Assembly: GCA_028824015.1 (NCBI GenBank)
Contig: JAPPFC010000030.1
Location: 98 to 64,097 of the forward strand
Source: a bacterium
Lineage (GTDB): Bacteria; Actinomycetota; Acidimicrobiia; Spongiisociales; ZC4RG35
Direction: 5' to 3'
DNA length: 64,000 nt
Part shown: one piece after another, positions 1-46,931 of the stretch
Layout of the letters: every line of letters starts with the position of its first letter
Position numbering within the stretch: position 1 is the first letter of the stretch
Notes under the pieces: model-generated
Told to the model about the DNA's origin: nothing
Seen by the model: only the letters and a program-made list of their open reading frames with translations
Databases searched by the model: none
Program-made: the position numbers and the translations under genes

Positions 1-2923
1 AGTATTCGGGGTTTTCGGCACGAAGGTCGTCTGCTCTGAGCGTCAACCACTCTATGGCTCTTTTGCTTTCGTCCGGCGTGATATGAGGCACCTGGCTTGC
101 GGCAATACCAGCGAACTGCCCCACGGTTGTGGTGGCGAACGGCTCTTCGGCTGTTACTTCCCAGGAGCATGCCACATAAAGGACACCGGTCAACGCGTCC
201 AAACCGAAACCTAAGTTGTGTTGGAGGGCACGGTCTATTCCGGCGAGTTTCGGGTTTACCTCTCTGATTGGTCTTGGATCCTCGGGAGGGGGTTCTGCGC
301 CCCTGGTTGTTGAAGTAGTGATAGGGACAGGATCAGGAAGGGTTTCAGCAGCCCACTGGTGTTCGTATGCTCGCAAGTCCACGTCTGTAGGATCTGGGCT
401 TTCATCAATCACTATTTCGTAGAATTCGTCCACAGTGATGCTGGCACTGGTCAGACCAAGGTGGAGGGACTCGCTGCGTAAGCAGGAAGCGAAGGCAAGT
501 TCGGCAACACTGAGAGCCTCAATCCATAAGAATGGCTCCGGCTGGGAGTTACCGCAGGGCGGGCGGGCGAGGATCTCTTCGAGAATCAGCGAAATGGCCT
601 TTACGAGATTGAAAACTGCTCTTGGTTGCTCCTCTGTAGGATCGGTAGCTGGGTCGATGTGAACGGGGAACCCTCTTCTCGTAGCCAGACCCTCAAAGCC
701 CACCGTTCGTTTGTAGTTCGCTCGCTCAAGCTGTAACAGGGCCATTGCCACAAGCCCGTCGGCACTGTAGTGTTCCAAAACCTGGTGGAGTCGGGCAATC
801 AACCACGGGTATATGGTCATGCTCTCAAGGTTCTTCGCTCGATCGTCTCCATATCTTCCTGGCTCAACAGCGGAATAGACCAGGTGTTGACCCAACTCCT
901 GCATGACAGCCGATAGTTGCGAACGGTGGCTTCTAATGGGTTCGGGGTAGCCGGATGCTTGGTGTGGGACATCCACTCTGTCAAGCCGGACTCCCGGTGG
1001 TGCGTCATCCCATGCACCTGTGAAGGTATCCCTGGCCTCGGGGGAGTCAAAGACCTCAGACAATAGCCGACCGGTTAATTCCTCAATACCTAGCGAATCG
1101 TCCTCGAGGGCTTGGAACAGGTAATCGTTCCAACCCAGCGTCACAAGTTGACGGTTTCGCTGGACCACTCGGAGAGGCTGACCTACGCTGGCCTGGTGGT
1201 CGCTTACAAAGCCGATTTGAAGAGCCTGAAAATCAGTTACTTCGGCTGCCGATTGCAAGGCTTTTTCCATGTGCTTTAACTTCCATAGGATGCCAGTAGC
1301 GAAAGCTGACAAGTTGGGCCCACCCGCGGACGGATCGATGAAGTCAACCATGCTGACCGCCACAGGGACCGGCCGCGGCAACACATGGTATTCGATGCCT
1401 AGGTTCAGGTTCGCTAAATGCCATCCGTCATCGGTCTTGTCCACCATAGGCCAAGCGGATAGCCATGGAAATTCTAGAAGTGCTAACGCACGTTCCACCG
1501 CGGCCGATTCGGCTGCGGCCGACCACTGAGTTTCACCCCACATGGGATCGATGAATATGCCCGAGGGAGGTCTGCCGCCCAGAGGAAATGTTTTACCGCT
1601 GCTTCGCCACAATTCCCACGCGGCAACCAAGTCAGGAGAGAACACTTCTGTGGCAGCTTCCATTCTCGCGAAGTCGCGGAGGAAATACCAAAGGTCCTCG
1701 GAGCATCGAGCAGAGGTACGCACCAACCAAAGAAAACCCCGAAAATGGCAAGAGGGATGCCCCCCTAGAGACAAGTGTTTGTCGGGGTGAGCGGTTATTT
1801 GGAGGGTGAACACCTGGGCGTCAGGCTCGATTGGAAACGCTCCCGCGTCGGATACCAGGGCGGCTCCCGGAGCAATACGCCGCAGACTCTCGACACCTGT
1901 TTGCATTCTGTTCAAGAAAGAGGGTGGCGACAGGCCTGCAACGACATCCACAATGAGCACCTGACGAGGGGAATAAACAACTGCCCAGTGGGGAGGGGAT
2001 CCGTGAGAAGCTCTTACGGGTCCAAAGACGTGATGGCCAGAGCCCGCCAAAAGGTAAGCAACTCCCCGTTCCATCTTACGAATCCAACGATGTTCCACAG
2101 CAGGGTCAAGACTGTGAGCCTTCTCCGCCAGCGCCTCACCCATCTGGCAAAGAGAATCAACGAGCATGCCCGCAGGGACGGGCACATATTCCTCATGAGA
2201 CAATCGGACAGCCAGCAAGGCTCCGAAGGGGGCACCAACGCCGGATGAATCAAAGGACAGATCGTCGGGTGTTGCCGACAGGTATTCCAAGGCGCGTCGT
2301 ACCCGGTCGGGAAATCGGGATGCCCCGACCTGGTCGGAAATGTCCAGCAGAGTTGCCGCAGCAGCGAATTCCTCACCGGTAATGAACGGCGTTGCATCAA
2401 GTGACTCCTCGCGGCTTGACCAGGTCGGCTCAAGGACCGAGGCAACATGATCAACCCTTCTCAGCACCAACTCCACCACGTCTTCCAAACCGAATCCCAA
2501 ATGCTCAACGAGAACCGGATCGATAACGTTTGAAAGAAGGCGAAGACTCTCGACAACCTCTACCGGTTGCTCGAGAGATCCGGGCAGGAGCCGATACAGA
2601 TCCCCTCCCCAGCGAACCACCACCTCCAAGCGGGCATCATATGGAAGGAAGTCCTCCCGTTGCCACAGATTGGGATCTTCCCGGCGAGCAGCATCAACCA
2701 ACACCGGAAGGAGGGCTGGAGTGGCTTGCAGGGACCCCGACCTGGTCCGCCTTATGACAGAATCGAACACCAACTCCAGCGAGGCAAGACGGTGACAGGA
2801 TGTCGGCGAGACACTGGCAGCTTCCAACAGGGCCAGTAGCGACGAAAGAGACACTCCATCAGCAGCGTCACCAACAGACCCGGCAGCCCGCTCCCTAAGT
2901 CCTCCGCCACCACAATCAGTCAC
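1..2923 (-). CDS. Large hypothetical protein (>970 aa; C-terminus runs off the window at position 1). GTG start at 2923 preceded by GAGGA.
   Basis: I read the minus strand by hand. From the GTG at 2921-2923 there is one uninterrupted frame to position 1 with protein-like composition (e.g. ...LEQPVEVVESLRLLSNVIDPVLVEHLGFGLEDVVELVLRRVDHVASVLEPTW...). The ORF track does not list it, presumably because the ORF has no stop inside the window. GC is ~55%, against ~68% for the rest of the window. No family recognised. Confidence 0.55.
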   Translation of the reverse strand, partial: MTDCGGGGLRERAAGSVGDAADGVSLSSLLALLEAASVSPTSCHRLASLELVFDSVIRRTRSGSLQATPALLPVLVDAARREDPNLWQREDFLPYDARLEVVVRWGGDLYRLLPGSLEQPVEVVESLRLLSNVIDPVLVEHLGFGLEDVVELVLRRVDHVASVLEPTWSSREESLDATPFITGEEFAAAATLLDISDQVGASRFPDRVRRALEYLSATPDDLSFDSSGVGAPFGALLAVRLSHEEYVPVPAGMLVDSLCQMGEALAEKAHSLDPAVEHRWIRKMERGVAYLLAGSGHHVFGPVRASHGSPPHWAVVYSPRQVLIVDVVAGLSPPSFLNRMQTGVESLRRIAPGAALVSDAGAFPIEPDAQVFTLQITAHPDKHLSLGGHPSCHFRGFLWLVRTSARCSEDLWYFLRDFARMEAATEVFSPDLVAAWELWRSSGKTFPLGGRPPSGIFIDPMWGETQWSAAAESAAVERALALLEFPWLSAWPMVDKTDDGWHLANLNLGIEYHVLPRPVPVAVSMVDFIDPSAGGPNLSAFATGILWKLKHMEKALQSAAEVTDFQALQIGFVSDHQASVGQPLRVVQRNRQLVTLGWNDYLFQALEDDSLGIEELTGRLLSEVFDSPEARDTFTGAWDDAPPGVRLDRVDVPHQASGYPEPIRSHRSQLSAVMQELGQHLVYSAVEPGRYGDDRAKNLESMTIYPWLIARLHQVLEHYSADGLVAMALLQLERANYKRTVGFEGLATRRGFPVHIDPATDPTEEQPRAVFNLVKAISLILEEILARPPCGNSQPEPFLWIEALSVAELAFASCLRSESLHLGLTSASITVDEFYEIVIDESPDPTDVDLRAYEHQWAAETLPDPVPITTSTTRGAEPPPEDPRPIREVNPKLAGIDRALQHNLGFGLDALTGVLYVACSWEVTAEEPFATTTVGQFAGIAASQVPHITPDESKRAIEWLTLRADDLRAENPEY

Positions 2924-3235
2924 TGTTCATCCTCAAGTATGCCGTTTCGGGACCTAACCGAACTCTCTGCCATGTGAAGGGACCCACCCCCCACTACGGC
3001 TCCTGACTCCACCCAAGCATCCCCCTGACGAAGACACCAGAAGGCTGCTCAGAATTCATCCGGTTTAGGGATGCTGGTGATCAAAGTGGGTCTCCTCGCA
3101 ACCCAGCCGCCTCCGCCAAATACCCGAAACCCTCCATGCCGTGCGAGGTGCAAGGTTCCACCCGCTTCGTGGTCACAGCGTAGTTCCGCTCCCCACGGAA
3201 AAAACTACCCTGCGTAGCCTGCCCGGCCTGGCGGC

Positions 3236-3790
3236 TCATATGGCGCCGCTGAACATCAAGCCAAAGATTGCTAGTAGCACTGCAGCGACGATGGTAGTTC
3301 CAACCACGATCCTTGCCGCCGTTTCCCTCGCCCAAGCCGCACCCGCGGTGTCAGCGGTGCGAGTCATGCCCCAAATGCCCGCCAGCACGGTCCAGGCACC
3401 GGTGCAGATCGCCCACCACATAACACCCAAACACCAGGCTCGGCCGTCACAGGGTGATGGGCCCCCAGACAGGATGCTCAAACCGATTAACGCCCCCACC
3501 GCAAAGGAGGCGGAGATCGCCATCAGCACTCCGCCGTAGCGCTCCACCACCTCGGTATAGCGCGCCGAGCCGTAGGACGCAACCGGCCCGCCGCACAGCA
3601 GCATGCCGAATAACGGCGGCACCACCACCACCGCATGCACTAGGTCGGGTACCCACTCCTGGGTACTAAGGGCCCACAAGAGCCCTACCACTCCTCCATA
3701 CCGGAACGCCCACCGCAAATAGGCCGCCATCATCTGATCTGGCACCTCGGCCAGCCACTCGACAAACTGCCCCAGCCACTGCCAGATCAT
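3236..3790 (-). CDS. Hypothetical multi-pass membrane protein
   Basis: 184-aa ORF with several hydrophobic helices (GGVVGLLWAL..., VLAGIWGM..., IVVGTTIVAAVLLAIFGLMF). It lies directly upstream of, and co-oriented with, the large ORF at 1-2923, inside the low-GC island. Confidence 0.45.
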   Translation of the reverse strand: MIWQWLGQFVEWLAEVPDQMMAAYLRWAFRYGGVVGLLWALSTQEWVPDLVHAVVVVPPLFGMLLCGGPVASYGSARYTEVVERYGGVLMAISASFAVGALIGLSILSGGPSPCDGRAWCLGVMWWAICTGAWTVLAGIWGMTRTADTAGAAWARETAARIVVGTTIVAAVLLAIFGLMFSGAI

Positions 3791-4417
3791 CGCAGCCGCC
3801 TTTCAGGCGGACTATCAAACCAGAAAGCAACCTCGTTAACGGCCGCCTCCCCCGACATTCGTGTAAGTTTCGAGGACGGCTCGGGTCCGGTGGCGGCTCT
3901 TGGCCTGATCGCGGACAGTACCCCACCAGACCCTGCACAAGAATCCGGTCAGTGATCCAAGTATACGGTTTCGCATCCCGCCACCACTGCCATCACCACC
4001 GCTGGAACAGCCCGGCACCACATCCGCCTCTAATTCTGTCACCGGCAACTCCATACGGATCTTCTCCTCAAGGAAGAAAACACCCTCCAATACACCACCT
4101 TCTTGTTAGCGGCGGTACTCGGATCGCACGACAGATACGGCTCCACCGCTTCCGGCCAGGCCAAGCGGGCAGACCTCACCCGCCACATCGCTAATCCCTG
4201 CAAACACTTCATCGACTCCCACTTCCCGCATCCTCCCTTTGTTGGTCCGATTTGTGATCTCGCTTCACGCAGCAAGCGTAATCGCGAAACGCCATCTAAC
4301 GCGGCAACTGCCCAGCGGGATTGTTCCAAGACATAGCGTAGAGATGCGGAGCAAGGAACCAGCGGCGTCGAATCTCGCCGCCTAAGTTGGTCTAAATCTG
4401 GCGTATCCCGACGTTAA

Positions 4418-4858
4418 CTACGGATTGTAGAAGTGCCATATGTTGAAGGCTGTCCCCTCTCCCAGTGTCGACGCTATTTGGTAGAGCGCGGCATCTGCAG
4501 TTACAAGAGGACGCTGGGGAGATATCTTCTCCAAAAGCACTGCATCGGCGAGGCCGACCTCCAAGTAGTAGGGGTTGCCGGCGGCCTCCCTACTCTCGAC
4601 TACCACCTCCTCACTCTCTTCGATTAGCTGACGCAGGCGCACCAGAAAACGAGCATCATCGGAGGCCTTTAGCAGATTGCAGGCCTCCGTAAGCGTGTTT
4701 GGAGTTACGATCACATGAGCAGTTACCTCAATGGCTCGCAACAGGGCGTCGTATTGTTCCGGCACGAAATTACGGGTTCTGCGATGCTTTCGAATCAGGG
4801 ATCTACTCACAGAGCCCACCACCAGTAGGACGAGTAGGTTGGCGTCGATAAACATCAA
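4418..4858 (-). CDS. PIN-domain protein (VapC-like putative toxin)
   Basis: 146 aa. N-terminal MMFIDANLLVLL has the conserved first Asp. Acidic residues are spaced as in PIN domains (D5, E in TEACNLL, D in GLADAV, D in VTADAAL). Its start overlaps the upstream small ORF by ATGA. Confidence 0.45.
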   Translation of the reverse strand: MMFIDANLLVLLVVGSVSRSLIRKHRRTRNFVPEQYDALLRAIEVTAHVIVTPNTLTEACNLLKASDDARFLVRLRQLIEESEEVVVESREAAGNPYYLEVGLADAVLLEKISPQRPLVTADAALYQIASTLGEGTAFNIWHFYNP

Positions 4859-5127
4859 CCCGAGGGATTGTCTCGATTCTTGACCGAAAGGACCTCACCC
4901 CGGCTATCCATCTCTACTACCTTGTGATACCGAGTACGTCCTCCGAAAGCCACCGCAATAGCATCCCCGCCACTTGAAAGCGGCCTCAAGAAGCTAACGG
5001 TGACTTTCCATCCGTCACCATAGGTCGCGAACACGACCTCCTCCAGACGAAGTTCCCCAACCCCTTCTCCAGCGAACACCTCTCCGACGGTCGCTTTTGC
5101 TTTCTTCACAGCCTCGGCTAAATCCAT
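4855..5127 (-). CDS. Small protein upstream of, and overlapping, the PIN gene (putative antitoxin partner)
   Basis: 90-aa ORF. Its stop overlaps the PIN start by 4 nt (translational coupling). Sequence not recognisable as RHH/AbrB/Phd. Confidence 0.35.
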   Translation of the reverse strand: MDLAEAVKKAKATVGEVFAGEGVGELRLEEVVFATYGDGWKVTVSFLRPLSSGGDAIAVAFGGRTRYHKVVEMDSRGEVLSVKNRDNPSG

Positions 5128-42066: not shown

Positions 42067-42885
42067 ATGTCCCAGACCTCTCTGCTCCGCACCTTCATTT
42101 CCTCCCCGCAGAATCCCCGGGTCAAGGCACTGGTGCGCCTTCGCACCCGGCGCGAGCGGGAGAGGAAGGCGACATTCCTGGTGGAGGGATACAGGGAGTT
42201 GCGAAGGGCGCTGGCCTGGAAACGCCACCTGGTGGCGGTGTATTGCTGCCCGCCTCTCTATCTGGGTGACAACGAGGAGAAACTTCTCTCGGAGGCGGCG
42301 CAGGCAGCCGAAGTGGTGGAGATGTCGGAAGCTGCATTCCGGAAGGTCGCCTACCGCGACCGTCCCGAGGGCCTCCTCGCGGTGCTCCGCCAGCCTCCCC
42401 TTCCGCTCTCCGCACTCAGGCTGGGAGCAGCGCCCCTCGTCCTGGTTGTGGAGTCGGTGGAGAAGCCCGGAAACCTGGGCGCCATGCTCCGGACGGCCGA
42501 AGCGGCGGGAGCGGACGCCGTGGTGGTGGCCGACCCGGCGACCGATGTCTTCAATCCCAACGTGGTCCGCGCCTCGCTGGGCTCGCTTTTCACCGTGCCG
42601 CTGGCAGTTGCGGAGGGTCCGGAGGCGCTGGAGTGGCTCCGCCAGGCAGACCTCCGGGTGATAGCCACCAGCCCTGCGGCCCCGGAGCCCTGCTGGAAAA
42701 CCGATCTCTCTGACAGGGTGGCGGTGGTGATCGGCACCGAACAGTACGGCCTGTCGGATCTCTGGCTGGATGGCGCCGACCACAGGGTGTCCATCCCCAT
42801 GTCCGGAACCGTCGACTCCCTCAATGCCGGATCGGCGGCGGCCGTCATACTGTTCGAGGCCCGACGTCAACGCTCACACGGTTAA
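42067..42885 (+). CDS. TrmH/SpoU-family RNA 2'-O-methyltransferase
   Basis: SPOUT motifs (VVESVEKPGNLGAMLRTAEAAGADAVV, IGTEQYGLS, GTVDSLNAGSAAAV). Confidence 0.75.
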   Translation: MSQTSLLRTFISSPQNPRVKALVRLRTRRERERKATFLVEGYRELRRALAWKRHLVAVYCCPPLYLGDNEEKLLSEAAQAAEVVEMSEAAFRKVAYRDRPEGLLAVLRQPPLPLSALRLGAAPLVLVVESVEKPGNLGAMLRTAEAAGADAVVVADPATDVFNPNVVRASLGSLFTVPLAVAEGPEALEWLRQADLRVIATSPAAPEPCWKTDLSDRVAVVIGTEQYGLSDLWLDGADHRVSIPMSGTVDSLNAGSAAAVILFEARRQRSHG

Positions 42886-42928
42886 TCCTGGATTACAATT
42901 GGACGATCTCGGGAGAGGAGGTACAACG

Positions 42929-43162
42929 ATGACAGTCGCCGTCCGACAAAACCACGATGCGTACAAAGAGCACCGGGAGGACATAGAACGAGAGCATCTG
43001 GGGAAGATCGTTCTGATGCACGATGGCCAGGTAGTGAGCACCCATGAGGACTACATTGAGGCCTACATCCAAGGTTGCGCAGCTTACGGGTTGGGCAACT
43101 TCTTGATCAAAAGAGTCGGAGAAGAACCCGCCAAACTCGGCTATCTCGCCTACAGACTGTAG
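42929..43162 (+). CDS. Small hypothetical protein (77 aa), low GC, upstream partner of the retropepsin-like gene
   Basis: ATG preceded by GAGAGGAGG. ~52% GC. 4-nt gap to the next gene. Confidence 0.5.
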   Translation: MTVAVRQNHDAYKEHREDIEREHLGKIVLMHDGQVVSTHEDYIEAYIQGCAAYGLGNFLIKRVGEEPAKLGYLAYRL

Positions 43163-43166
43163 GTCC

Positions 43167-43607
43167 ATGCCAACGTTCTCCGTTCCGGTTAGGAACAATG
43201 AGATCTTGATAAGGGTCGGTGTGGTTGGCGTGAGGCCTACGGACGGGAAACCCATCATCCCCGAAGACCTCCTTGACATCAACAGATGCGACGCCTTGGT
43301 GGACACAGGTGCTCAAATCTCGCTGGTCTCCCCCAAAGTGATCAGCGACGTGATGGCCATCCCCATCGGTGTGGGTGCTTATACAGCAGCCAACGGCCAA
43401 ACCCAAGAGGCGGACGAGTACTTGCTGGGAATTGACATCCCGATCCAACTGGGCGATGACGAGTCCACTTATGCCAGGGGGATGACACTAAGGGTTCTGG
43501 AAGTGCCGGCACTCCACCAGGAAGGCTACGAGGTGATCTTGGGAATGGACTGCCTTGGTCTATTCCACATCACCATGTGGAATAACACCTTCGTGCTCAG
43601 CAACTGA
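43167..43607 (+). CDS. Retropepsin-like (clan AA) aspartic protease
   Basis: ALVDTGAQISLVS (D-T-G-A catalytic motif) and the C-terminal VILGMDCL retropepsin motif. 146 aa. Low GC. Confidence 0.6.
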   Translation: MPTFSVPVRNNEILIRVGVVGVRPTDGKPIIPEDLLDINRCDALVDTGAQISLVSPKVISDVMAIPIGVGAYTAANGQTQEADEYLLGIDIPIQLGDDESTYARGMTLRVLEVPALHQEGYEVILGMDCLGLFHITMWNNTFVLSN

Positions 43608-43653
43608 CGCAAACCGGGCTGCAAGCGGACTGTGATCTCCCAGCCGGGAGAAG

Positions 43654-44352
43654 TTAGGCAACGGCTGAGATCGCTTCGCTCAGGGTGAATCGCCCCTCGT
43701 ACAGCGCTCTCCCCACAATCACGGCCTCGCACCCCAGGGCCGCCACTGCCTTGAGGTCGGAGAGATCACCCACTCCGCCCGAGGCGATCACCGCCATGTC
43801 CGAGAGCTTTCCCACCTGTGCCAGCAGGTCGAGATCCGGCCCCTTCATGGCTCCGTCCCGCTCGATGCCGGTCACCAGCAGCCTCACCACTCCCGCTTCC
43901 CGCAACCCTCTCAGTGCTTGGGAGACCGAACGCCCTTCGTCCAGCCATCCCGCCCCTCTCGCCCGGCCTGCTCGCACGTCGAGAGCCGCCACTACTCGCT
44001 CCACCTCCCCCACTTCCCCCAGGGCGGCCGGATTCCACACCGCGGCGGTTCCCATAACCACCCTCCGGGCGCCCGCCGCCAGTGCGGCCCGGGCGGCGTC
44101 CGGGGTGCGGATGCCCCCGCCCACCTGGAAAGGGACCCCCGCCTCGCCCATCCCTCGCCAGATCCGGCGGTCGGGATCACCCGTCTTCGCGCCGGAGAGA
44201 TCCACCACATGCACCAAATCGGCGCCCTGCTCCATCCATCGGCCCGCCACCTCGACCGGGCTGTCCGAATAGCGGGTCACCTTCCGGTAGTCGCCGTGCA
44301 GCAATCTGACCACCCTCCCCTCCAGAATGTCCACGGCCGGGATTATCTGCAT
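43654..44352 (-). CDS. hisA: 1-(5-phosphoribosyl)-5-[(5-phosphoribosylamino)methylideneamino]imidazole-4-carboxamide isomerase (HisA/PriA-type)
   Basis: MQIIPAVDILEGRVVRL, GGGIR, VIASGGV (beta/alpha)8 phosphate-binding motifs. Confidence 0.85.
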   Translation of the reverse strand: MQIIPAVDILEGRVVRLLHGDYRKVTRYSDSPVEVAGRWMEQGADLVHVVDLSGAKTGDPDRRIWRGMGEAGVPFQVGGGIRTPDAARAALAAGARRVVMGTAAVWNPAALGEVGEVERVVAALDVRAGRARGAGWLDEGRSVSQALRGLREAGVVRLLVTGIERDGAMKGPDLDLLAQVGKLSDMAVIASGGVGDLSDLKAVAALGCEAVIVGRALYEGRFTLSEAISAVA

Positions 44353-44395
44353 CGCTGGGCGCCCTCCTGGGATCATGAAACCGGGTTTGCGCTAA

Positions 44396-44446: not shown

Positions 44447-44755
44447 ATGACGGTCGACAGATCATGGCGCAACCAGGACACCCGGGCGCTTTTCTCCGCG
44501 GTGCTGACCCTGGAAACGGTGGACGAAGCCGCGATCTTCTTCCGGGACCTCTGCACCCGCAAGGAAATATCGGACCTGAGCCAGCGATGGGCGGTTGTCC
44601 GCCAACTCGACCGGGGACTCTCCTACCGGCAGATCTCGGAGATCACCGGCGCCGCAACCGCCACCATAACCCGTATCAACCAGTGGCTGCGTCACGGCAC
44701 CGGCGGTTATCGCCTGGCCCTCTCCAGGGTCAAGACGACGCCTGATACGGAGTAG
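44447..44755 (+). CDS. TrpR/YerC-YecD-like small HTH regulator
   Basis: 102 aa. LSQRWAVVRQLDRGLSYRQISEITGAATATITR is the Trp-repressor-family HTH. Confidence 0.55.
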   Translation: MTVDRSWRNQDTRALFSAVLTLETVDEAAIFFRDLCTRKEISDLSQRWAVVRQLDRGLSYRQISEITGAATATITRINQWLRHGTGGYRLALSRVKTTPDTE

Positions 44756-44763
44756 CAGACCCG

Positions 44764-45627
44764 ATGAACAAGAGTGCACTAACCCTGGCGATACCCAACA
44801 AGGGTCGCCTCCGCGAGCCATCGCTCCGGCTCCTCAAGAGCGCCGGGATGTCCTTCGAGGTGACCGACCGGGCCCTGTCCCTGCGGGTCCGGAATGTCGA
44901 GGTGGATCTGGTGCTGGTCCGCACCGAGGACATACCGGGAATGCTGATTGAAGGCGTGGCCGACGTCGGGATAACGGGACTGGATCTCATGGAGGAGTCC
45001 GATCCGGATGCCGCTCTGGTGCCGCTGGTCAAACTGGACTTCGGGTTCTGTCGCCTGGCGGCGGCGGTGCCCAACGCCTCTTCGATCGACTCCCTGGAGG
45101 ACCTGAGGGGGCTGCGGGTCGCCACATCCCATCCCCGGACCACCGCCCGGTTCCTCTCTGATCGTGGCATCCCCGCCTCGGTCGTGGCCCTCAAGGGATC
45201 CGTGGAGGCGGCCACCAAGATCGCCCTGGCCGACGCGGTGGTGGATCTGGTCTCGACAGGGTCCACCCTCAGGCTCAACGGATTGCGGGACATCGGCGTC
45301 CTTCTCGAGTCCCAAGCGGTCCTGGCCGGACTCCCCGAGGTGAGGGACAACCGGCTCGTCCGCCAACTGGTGACCGCGGTGCGGGCGGTGACCGCCGGGC
45401 GGCGTAAGCGCTACCTGCTTCTCAACACCTCGGTCGACAACACCGCCGAGATCAGCCGGCTGATGCCCGGTCTCTCAGCTCCCACCATCGTTCCCTTGGA
45501 CGACCCGGAGATGGTGGCCATGCATTCGGTGGTGGACGCCTCGGACCTGTGGGATCTGCTGCCCCGCCTCGAAGACGCGGGCGGGAAGGGGATCCTGGTG
45601 CTTGACATAGGACAACTCGTCCCGTGA
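44764..45627 (+). CDS. hisG: ATP phosphoribosyltransferase (long form)
   Basis: 287 aa. LTLAIPNKGRL, VDLVSTGSTLRLNGL. Confidence 0.85.
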   Translation: MNKSALTLAIPNKGRLREPSLRLLKSAGMSFEVTDRALSLRVRNVEVDLVLVRTEDIPGMLIEGVADVGITGLDLMEESDPDAALVPLVKLDFGFCRLAAAVPNASSIDSLEDLRGLRVATSHPRTTARFLSDRGIPASVVALKGSVEAATKIALADAVVDLVSTGSTLRLNGLRDIGVLLESQAVLAGLPEVRDNRLVRQLVTAVRAVTAGRRKRYLLLNTSVDNTAEISRLMPGLSAPTIVPLDDPEMVAMHSVVDASDLWDLLPRLEDAGGKGILVLDIGQLVP

Positions 45628-46931
45628 TCGCCATCTCTCAACCTCGGCTGCGCCAGGTGCTGCTGAATGAGCTCACCGAAGCCGAGTGGACCGGATTGTG
45701 CCGCCGCAGCGCCGTGCCGGACCCCGATGTGCGGAGGATCGCCGGGGACATATGCGAGGAGGTGAGGAACGGGGGAGATCGGGCCATGGAACGTGTGGCC
45801 GCCCGCCATGGAGGCGGGTATTTCCCTGTGACGCGGTCGGAGTTGGAGCGAGCCGCCGGCGACATCCCGGAGGTAACCGCCGCTCTCGAGGACGCCAGAG
45901 ACCGGATAGCGTCCTTCCACCTCCCCCAGGTCCCTTCGGACATGCACCGCGAAGACGTTCGGGGCATCGCCATCACCCGCCGGTGGTCCCCCCTCGGTCG
46001 GGTGGGCGCCTACGTTCCCGGCGGAAAGGCCGCCTACCCCTCCACCGTCCTGATGACGGTGGTCCCGGCCAAGGTGGCCGGGGTTGGCGAGGTGGTGGTT
46101 GCCACCCCGGCCGGCCCCGACGGGGAGGTCCACCAGGCGACCCTGGCGGCCTGCTGGGTGGCCGGCGCAGACGAGGTGTGGGCCATGGGGGGCGCGGGCG
46201 CGGTGGCGACTCTCGCCTACGGGACCGGACTCGTGAAGCGGGTGGAGAAGATCGTCGGACCGGGCAGTCGGTGGGTGACGGCCGCCAAGTTGGCGGTGTT
46301 CGGGGACTGCGGAATCGACCTCCCGGCCGGCCCCTCGGAAGTCCTGGTGCTGGCCGACCACTCGGCCGATCCGGTACTGGTCGCCGCCGACCTCCTTTGC
46401 CAAGCCGAGCACGGACCGGACTCCCCCGCGATCCTGGTCACCACCGACCCGACCCTCCCCTCCCGGGTGGAGGAAGCGCTTGAGGAGCAGTTGGCGTCCC
46501 TCGATCGTCGGGAAGTCCTGGCCGAAGCCCTGGCCAACCACGGCATGACGGTGATCGCTTCCGACATGACCGAAGCTCTCTCTTTCACCAATCGATACGC
46601 AGCCGAGCACGTCTCCCTACTCACCTCCGACACCGAGACGCACGCCAAAGCGGTCACCGCGGCCGGTTCGGTCTACGTCGGGCGCTGGTCGGCGGAGTCG
46701 GCCGGCGACTATGCAACCGGGGCCAATCACGTGCTGCCCACCGGGGGTCTGGCGGCCTGTTACGGTCCCCTGTCGGTGGAGGACTTCGGTTCCTGGCGCC
46801 AGGAGCAACGTCTGACCCGCGAAGGTCTTGCCGATATTCTCCCCATCATCACCCGACTGGCCGATGTGGAAGGCTTCACCGCCCACCGCCGCGCGGCAGA
46901 GCTACGGTTCAGCACGGAAGGAGCACCATGA
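45624..46931 (+). CDS. hisD: Histidinol dehydrogenase
   Basis: 435 aa. Zn/NAD-binding motifs (GGAGAVATLAYGT, CQAEHGPDS). Confidence 0.9.
   Translation: MIAISQPRLRQVLLNELTEAEWTGLCRRSAVPDPDVRRIAGDICEEVRNGGDRAMERVAARHGGGYFPVTRSELERAAGDIPEVTAALEDARDRIASFHLPQVPSDMHREDVRGIAITRRWSPLGRVGAYVPGGKAAYPSTVLMTVVPAKVAGVGEVVVATPAGPDGEVHQATLAACWVAGADEVWAMGGAGAVATLAYGTGLVKRVEKIVGPGSRWVTAAKLAVFGDCGIDLPAGPSEVLVLADHSADPVLVAADLLCQAEHGPDSPAILVTTDPTLPSRVEEALEEQLASLDRREVLAEALANHGMTVIASDMTEALSFTNRYAAEHVSLLTSDTETHAKAVTAAGSVYVGRWSAESAGDYATGANHVLPTGGLAACYGPLSVEDFGSWRQEQRLTREGLADILPIITRLADVEGFTAHRRAAELRFSTEGAP

Follow-up and report, generated by a model that had tools for sequence, protein, structure and literature searches.

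A small DUF5678-like protein and a retropepsin-like protease form a conserved two-gene cassette with a possible toxin–antitoxin-like role

Retropepsins (MEROPS clan AA, family A2) and the RVP domain of Ddi1 are aspartic proteases with a single-lobe fold and two short signatures, a catalytic hydrophobic-hydrophobic-D-T-G-A motif and a second hydrophobic-hydrophobic-G motif. To our knowledge, only a handful of unrelated bacterial proteins are free-standing proteases of this kind, namely APRc, RimB and the Rlo proteases, of which APRc is membrane-associated. RimB from Pseudomonas acts in the rimABK operon on polyglutamylated RpsF (PMC11957791), and the Rlo proteases from P. aeruginosa are secreted (PMC11957051). 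Here we describe a two-gene cassette at positions 42886–43653 of a 64-kb stretch of contig JAPPFC010000030.1 (referred to as the window, with all positions counted from its first letter), which encodes a small protein of 77 amino acids (aa), a remote relative of the Pfam family DUF5678 (PF18929), and a retropepsin-like protease of 146 aa. Judged from sequence, a DUF5678-like protein together with a retropepsin-like protease is a conserved, co-diverging and compositionally foreign unit, and this is the new observation of the present work.

To take a closer look at the protease we compared it with the known members of clan AA. It shares the single-lobe fold and both signatures with retropepsins and Ddi1, as it carries ALVDTGAQ (residues 43–50), which contains the hydrophobic-hydrophobic-D-T/S-G-A catalytic motif of the clan, and VILGMDCL (residues 123–130), in which VILGMD (123–128) represents the second hydrophobic-hydrophobic-Gly motif and ILGMD compares with LLGMD in Ddi1. 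In an alignment of 53 family members D46, T47, G48, A49, G126 and M127 show no variation and at least 90% keep D128, and thus the invariance of DTGA points to an activity that is under selection. Both extreme ends of the protein, MPTF at the N-terminus and FVLSN at the C-terminus, are conserved in the alignments of the family as well, and the dimer interface is expected to be built from these terminal strands. With the Pfam models, the window protease reached E 1.1e-5 and 26.4 bits for gag-asp_proteas (gathering cut-off 28.2) and 20.9 bits for Asp_protease_2 (cut-off 24.3), and two relatives with about 40% identity (P0002 and P0003) passed the gag-asp_proteas cut-off with 30.1 and 31.1 bits. 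From the models that a first-pass annotation of this DNA had named, the window protease thus comes just short of the cut-offs of gag-asp_proteas and Asp_protease_2, and TIGR02281 and TIGR03698 failed, as no NCBIfam model matches either of the two cassette proteins.

The AlphaFold2 (AF2) model of the protease has a predicted local distance difference test score (pLDDT) of 90.6. A Foldseek search with this model found the protease (PR) of feline immunodeficiency virus (FIV) and APRc with a probability of 1.00 and E 1.3e-5, followed by the PR of Rous sarcoma virus and human immunodeficiency virus and the RVP domains of Ddi1, all within an E range of 1e-5 to 1e-3, and it also matched the RloA structure 9g58, the title of which says periplasmic. 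The template modelling scores to these structures are modest (0.4–0.63) and the identities are 13–21%. On the sequence level the family profile reaches Ddi1 (E 2e-6), the PR of human T-lymphotropic virus and FIV PR. The earlier description as a retroviral-type protease is thereby upheld, and by sequence and model the 146-aa protein is an aspartic protease of the retropepsin fold whose active site is intact. The claim that such proteases are rare did not survive, as a profile search gave at least 181 clusters at 90% identity for this family alone. No signal peptide or transmembrane segment was obvious by eye. We infer a cytoplasmic, probably homodimeric and active endopeptidase.

APRc (Rickettsia RC1339, PMC4140852), RimB and the Rlo proteases are likewise bacterial single-domain proteases of clan AA, and the APRc structures 5c9b and 5c9f are among the top matches. 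In contrast to retropepsins and Ddi1, the window protease is free-standing and not part of a polyprotein or multidomain protein, and it is encoded together with a separate small partner. It also differs from APRc, RimB and Rlo, since none of these has been reported with a DUF5678-like partner, and since the window protease is located in a mobile-looking two-gene cassette. In one relative (L008:4801–5826) another retropepsin-like stretch occurs in a 341-aa open reading frame (ORF) that lies about 1.4 kb further downstream than the cassette; this stretch matches profile positions 4–68 and includes D[TS]G.

In order to follow the pairing across genomes, one genome per species was searched with a 14-sequence protease alignment alone, which resulted in 61 loci, and a hidden Markov model (HMM) for the small gene was built from four small proteins. 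In 55 of the 61 protease-anchored loci the HMM found the small gene directly upstream and in the same orientation. Four of the six misses (L044, L048, L050 and L063) show a divergent homologous upstream ORF by eye and the remaining two, L046 and L051, are protease fragments. The gap between both genes lies between −26 and +18 nucleotides (nt) in 56 of 57 loci. From the other side, ten metagenome loci anchored on the small protein yielded seven full proteases, two truncated ones and one locus without any. Furthermore, the identity matrices of both proteins are correlated (45 pairs, r = 0.70), a value reached by none of 2000 Mantel permutations, so that the genes appear to travel and diverge as a unit. 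The first-pass annotation had assumed a small ORF conserved next to the protease, and this holds. Thus, the predicted modules of a DUF5678-like protein and a retropepsin-like protease are a widespread and conserved family.

Distant members of the small-protein family show the same neighbourhood. P0166 runs into the start of a 153-aa protein scoring above the gag-asp_proteas cut-off, a protease-like frame comes after P0248, and P0236 is a genuine single ORF of 385 aa (L085:3001–4158, found on 6 contigs) with two small domains N-terminal to the protease domain, a C-terminal transmembrane helix and faint DUF5678 as well as weak aspartic-protease matches. One neighbour of P0236 has a weak Phage_depo_C match and the others are without Pfam match. 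Two further candidates for fusions were rejected: P0245 (L083:91–798) has an in-frame stop four codons before the protease ATG and results from readthrough by the gene caller, and P0144 looks degenerate with its VATGA and a duplicated motif. The P0245 artefact is a caution for Rosetta-stone arguments drawn from metagenome protein sets.

The cassette also stands out in its base composition. The interval has a G+C content (GC) of 55.1%, with 53% in the lowest 200-nt windows, and its 2-kb flanks have 66.8%, so that the dip reported before is real, even if its size (52% versus about 68%) had been overstated. Windows of 768 nt across the whole 64 kb show a mean of 64.5% (standard deviation 3.5), which places the cassette at z = −2.7 and among the three lowest-GC spots, those starting at 4381 and 151 being equally low. 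GC at third codon positions (GC3) is 0.67 and 0.71 in the two cassette genes versus 0.80–0.86 in eight neighbouring genes. The same dip recurs in the family, as the GC of the cassette falls below that of the adjoining 2 kb in 55 of 57 related loci (mean −7 points, Wilcoxon p = 6e-11), which agrees with the earlier view of an anomalous composition. The data are best explained by a predicted two-gene operon that is self-contained and foreign in composition, and any acquisition is older than the split from the syntenic sister genome L006 described below.

The carriers belong to at least eight lineages, namely Acidimicrobiia, Dehalococcoidia, Rhodothermales, Bryobacterales, Longimicrobiales, Spirochaetia, Alpha- and Gammaproteobacteria, and several contigs harbour two copies. 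The neighbours elsewhere include UDG and TsaE, insertion sequence elements with a KAP NTPase, a PIN gene, an HNH/DUF222 gene as well as ABC transporter and sigma factor genes. In this the cassette behaves like a type II toxin–antitoxin (TA) system, whose adjacent and co-oriented small genes move together and stand in varying contexts. Three relatives (L001 at 3680–3720, L009 and L028) have the promoter-like sequence TTGACG-17-TAGCCT in common, located some 45 nt ahead of the small gene, which suggests that the cassette may bring its own promoter. At the place of the −10-like TACAAT in the window, L006 has CATAAT, and the position of the ribosome-binding site (RBS) is kept in L006, too. Many carriers are metagenome-assembled genomes (MAGs) named like sponge symbionts (Poriferisodalis, a genus of the Acidimicrobiales, and Poriferisocius; loci L007–L067), and these names hint at a possible enrichment in this habitat.

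It might be argued that both ORFs are unrelated or spurious and lie next to each other by chance in an AT-richer intergenic stretch after the upstream methylase gene, since NCBI labels both proteins as hypothetical, since the Pfam matches of both remain below the gathering thresholds and since the window has two further regions of equally low GC. However, both belong to large homologous families, the small ORF precedes the protease in 55–59 of 61 independent loci, and both proteins give high-confidence models and co-diverge. We therefore regard a chance adjacency as extremely improbable, and the co-occurrence data led us to reject it.

The small partner protein was used as a single query against 1.84 billion cluster representatives, which gave 166 clusters at E ≤ 1e-3, most of them 75–100 aa long and some being tandem doublets. 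DUF5678 is the only Pfam family that is matched recurrently, by 15 of 110 homologues at E ≤ 0.01, and has neither a known function nor a known structure. The window protein itself reaches E 0.008 and 16.4 bits (cut-off 23.2) and, being below the gathering threshold, is a remote relative of DUF5678 and not a member, and the tandem doublet P0166 passes the cut-off with 28.2 bits. According to the AF2 model (pLDDT 85.7) the protein is alpha/beta with helices at residues 3–14 and 16–23, a beta hairpin of strands 27–31 and 34–39, a helix at 42–53 and a strand at 59–62; the fold search revealed no significant match and no solved structural relative. The tail (residues 63–77) is of low confidence in the monomer model but nonetheless holds the conserved residues G64, P67, L70 and G71 (GxxPxxLG motif), and it ends in a hydrophobic, variable stretch after this motif, as in LG-YLAYRL, LG-IVTAALQ and LG-FYSHAV. 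Conserved residues in a tail of low model confidence are a pattern typical of a partner-binding segment.

A hint on how both proteins might act together comes from the way in which the cassette decays. In L006, which has 89–91% nucleotide identity to the window, the small gene is retained (87% aa identity) and the protease gene has been lost by a 440-bp deletion that is flanked by a 3-nt CGG microhomology and spares only 22 nt at the start of the protease ORF. In the orphan small gene, dN/dS (ratio of non-synonymous to synonymous substitution rates) is 0.33, from 10 non-synonymous and 8 synonymous changes, versus 0.05–0.17 in seven neighbours, and its product carries G49V at a glycine conserved to 91%. 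The pairing is thus obligate in one direction only, as the small gene can survive alone, which qualifies the obligate pairing claimed before. Besides L006, a full-length small gene stands beside a frameshifted, truncated or absent protease in L028, L043, L045, L047, L053, L055, L066, L068/69 and L070. In addition, two solo small genes were found (L037:3–251 and L047:1560–1934, minus strand); the one in L037 is followed, up to about 700, by an ORF that by eye resembles a macro domain. Across the loci no clear case of an intact protease beside a broken small gene was seen, L063 being ambiguous. With genes of 438 and 231 nt, 12/12 one-sided cases have a probability of about 0.006, and 9/9 without the frameshift-only cases one of about 0.02. 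Since the protease served as the query in the genomes, the search was biased against finding broken proteases. About 12 cases therefore follow the rule of type II TA systems, in which no toxin gene is kept without its antitoxin and orphan antitoxins are tolerated.

This mode of decay implies a small protein that shields the cell against the protease, and from the partner roles considered before (substrate, inhibitor or antitoxin-like) the one-sided decay would favour an inhibitor- or antitoxin-like one. In E. coli, the expression of retroviral proteases is toxic. We tentatively propose, from the sequences, a mobile TA-like module in which the small protein would restrain the protease, and give this reading a little less than an even chance. 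The small protein would bind the protease and hold it in check like an antitoxin or immunity protein, with the GxxPxxLG motif and the hydrophobic C-terminal tail as possible contacts; the tail might either occupy the substrate cleft as a pseudo-substrate or block the dimer interface, and the pair would then act as a TA-like selfish or defence module. More doubtful is the specific version in which the cassette would be the first example of a TA or abortive-infection-type module with such an effector, and in which a cytoplasmic retropepsin-like toxin would be kept in check by a DUF5678-like pseudo-substrate tail. The TA-like reading accounts for the gene order, the coupling, the signals of mobility and composition and the multiple copies, and also for the frequent loss of the protease, the tolerated orphan small genes and the invariant catalytic site in intact proteases.

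The conserved adjacency and the co-divergence of both proteins would also be expected if the small protein were the physiological substrate, with its C-terminal tail being trimmed after GxxPxxLG and the protein thereby activated or inactivated. Retropepsins prefer hydrophobic residues at P1/P1', which the variable hydrophobic tail after the conserved motif would suit, the tail is floppy in the AF2 model, and the single-ORF fusion P0236 recalls a polyprotein. A precedent is the spoIIG operon (spoIIGA-sigE), in which the aspartic protease SpoIIGA is encoded beside its substrate pro-sigma-E. As in that operon, the gene of a clan-AA-like protease stands beside that of a specific protein partner in the cassette; in contrast, SpoIIGA is a membrane protein, its gene comes first and its partner is a sigma factor, and no homology of the cassette proteins to SpoIIGA or a sigma factor was detected. 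However, a substrate role predicts that mutations hit either gene, and an intact protease with a broken small gene was not seen. It also leaves the TA-like mobility and the GC anomaly without an obvious explanation, and no downstream function is evident for a protein with only DUF5678 in Pfam and no fold match. We therefore consider the substrate role unlikely. Less probable still is that the small protein might be a required cofactor, an adaptor or activator that would recruit substrates or aid dimerisation in a specific regulatory proteolysis useful to the host, in analogy to the UBL (ubiquitin-like) domain of Ddi1 and to ClpS for ClpAP.

Returning to the TA-like reading, the comparison with type II TA systems is close in several respects, as a small upstream gene is followed by an enzyme gene in near or overlapping arrangement, with variable context, multiple copies, low GC and patchy distribution, and as the enzyme gene decays first and the small gene survives as an orphan. 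The differences are that the small protein is without a DNA-binding fold and that the effector would be an aspartic protease. A protease-type TA pair is represented by COG2856 (the ImmA/IrrE metalloprotease) and Xre, and we know of no described TA toxin that is an aspartic protease. In the PADLOC collection, 41 of the 53 family proteases match the PDC-M08B models (best E 1.2e-7), so that a multi-gene defence candidate already includes a related small protein of the retropepsin-like type, and this similarity at the sequence level would fit a role in a conflict system. PDC-M08 itself is an unvalidated candidate system, and its two components were not found together here.

Several observations weigh against the TA-like reading. 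The window proteins match nothing in PADLOC and the window protease is not found at E ≤ 1 for PDC-M08B; PDC-M08A is matched by none of the more than 120 small proteins scanned, and therefore the partner gene differs from that of PDC-M08. In Pfam and in the fold search the small protein has no HTH (helix-turn-helix), RHH (ribbon-helix-helix) or AbrB match, and it thus shows no DNA-binding domain of the kind that most type II antitoxins carry. With regard to mobility, neither a plasmid tblastn with both proteins nor a scan of viral contigs with the protease alignment found a match or relative, and the cassette is stable at the same site in two genomes that are about 10% apart in nucleotides. About a dozen events underlie the decay asymmetry, some of the frameshifts may be errors of long-read assembly, and a small protein with an independent function would give the same asymmetry. 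In this reading we infer that both proteins bind to each other, that the protease dimerises, that it is inhibited and that it is toxic when free, and we likewise infer any trigger.

As for earlier descriptions of the pair, NCBIfam, PADLOC and PHROGs contain no model for the small protein or for both together, and the window proteins are without matches in PHROGs. In the literature searched we found nothing on DUF5678 in this context or on PDC-M08, and nothing that links retropepsins with antitoxins or sponge symbionts. The assumption of an undescribed two-component module is thus in agreement with the databases and publications searched.

The coordinates of the cassette and its flanks are compiled in Table 1.

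Table 1: Features of the two-gene cassette and its flanking genes in the 64-kb window.
Feature	Position	Strand	Basis or remark
SpoU_methylase/MRM3-like gene	end at 42885	+	Pfam/NCBIfam searches
Leader, 43 nt, SpoU-family stop codon to small gene	42886..42928	+	sequence reading
−10-like TACAAT	42894-42899	+	sequence reading; putative promoter
RBS GGGAGAGGAGG	42911-42921	+	in leader of small gene
Small partner gene, 77 aa, TAG stop	42929..43162	+	ORF; NCBI hypothetical protein OXI56_05785
Spacer GTCC, 4 nt, small gene to protease gene	43163..43166	+	sequence reading
Retropepsin-like aspartic protease gene, 146 aa	43167..43607	+	ORF; NCBI hypothetical protein OXI56_05790
Segment absent from sister genome L006, 440 bp	43189..43628	+	blastn, window vs L006
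DTGA codons, residues 46-49	nt 43302-43313	+	protease ORF
ILGMD codons, residues 124-128	nt 43536-43550	+	protease ORF
3' spacer, 46 nt, protease stop to convergent hisA stop	43608..43653	+	sequence reading
hisA	43654-44376	−	convergent on cassette

The two-gene unit is flanked by hisA and by a methylase gene of the SpoU/TrmH family, and these two flanking genes are convergent. Here our reading agrees with the first-pass annotation in its coordinates, including the two ORFs, the strong RBS, the 4-nt gap and the convergent flanks. Its call of trmH for the methylase gene stands on the family level only, because all NCBIfam equivalog cut-offs were missed. The RBS contains AGGAGG (42916–42921) 7 nt ahead of the ATG of the small gene and is strong, and as the protease gene has no separate strong RBS, a translational coupling to the small gene is suggested. 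A consensus scan of the cassette region revealed no full sigma-70 promoter, which is why TACAAT is given as a putative promoter element in Table 1, and no terminator-like site, the spacer behind the protease gene included. The flanking direct repeats for which the first-pass annotation had proposed a check were not found either: direct and inverted repeats at the flanks are short, chance-size matches, and there are no insertion scars. An Rfam scan of the region gave no credible match. The NCBI source record of both proteins is a MAG labelled as unclassified ‘bacterium’.

In the vicinity, hisA is located apart from hisG-hisD and on the opposite strand, an arrangement that is alike in L006, and a gene for a YerC/YecD TrpR-like regulator lies directly upstream of hisG-hisD (44447–46931). 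Another of the lowest-GC spots of the window (54%) holds a second pair of small genes on the minus strand (4418–5127), encoding proteins of 90 aa (4855–5127) and 146 aa (4418–4858) with a 4-nt overlap; there are no Pfam matches and the cassette HMMs do not match, and the pair may be another TA-like one. The low-GC stretch at the start of the window holds a frame of 975 aa (2–2926, minus strand; GC3 0.57, no Pfam match), which may be foreign DNA or spurious.

If the TA-like reading is true, the cassette would represent a new TA or defence family with an aspartic protease as effector. In the specific version with the pseudo-substrate tail, aspartic proteolysis would join the known effector chemistries of TA and defence systems, and DUF5678 would obtain its first function. 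The small protein would also be a naturally occurring inhibitor, or pseudo-substrate, for a retropepsin, which would be relevant for the regulation of such proteases and for the evolutionary origin of the retroviral and Ddi1 proteases.

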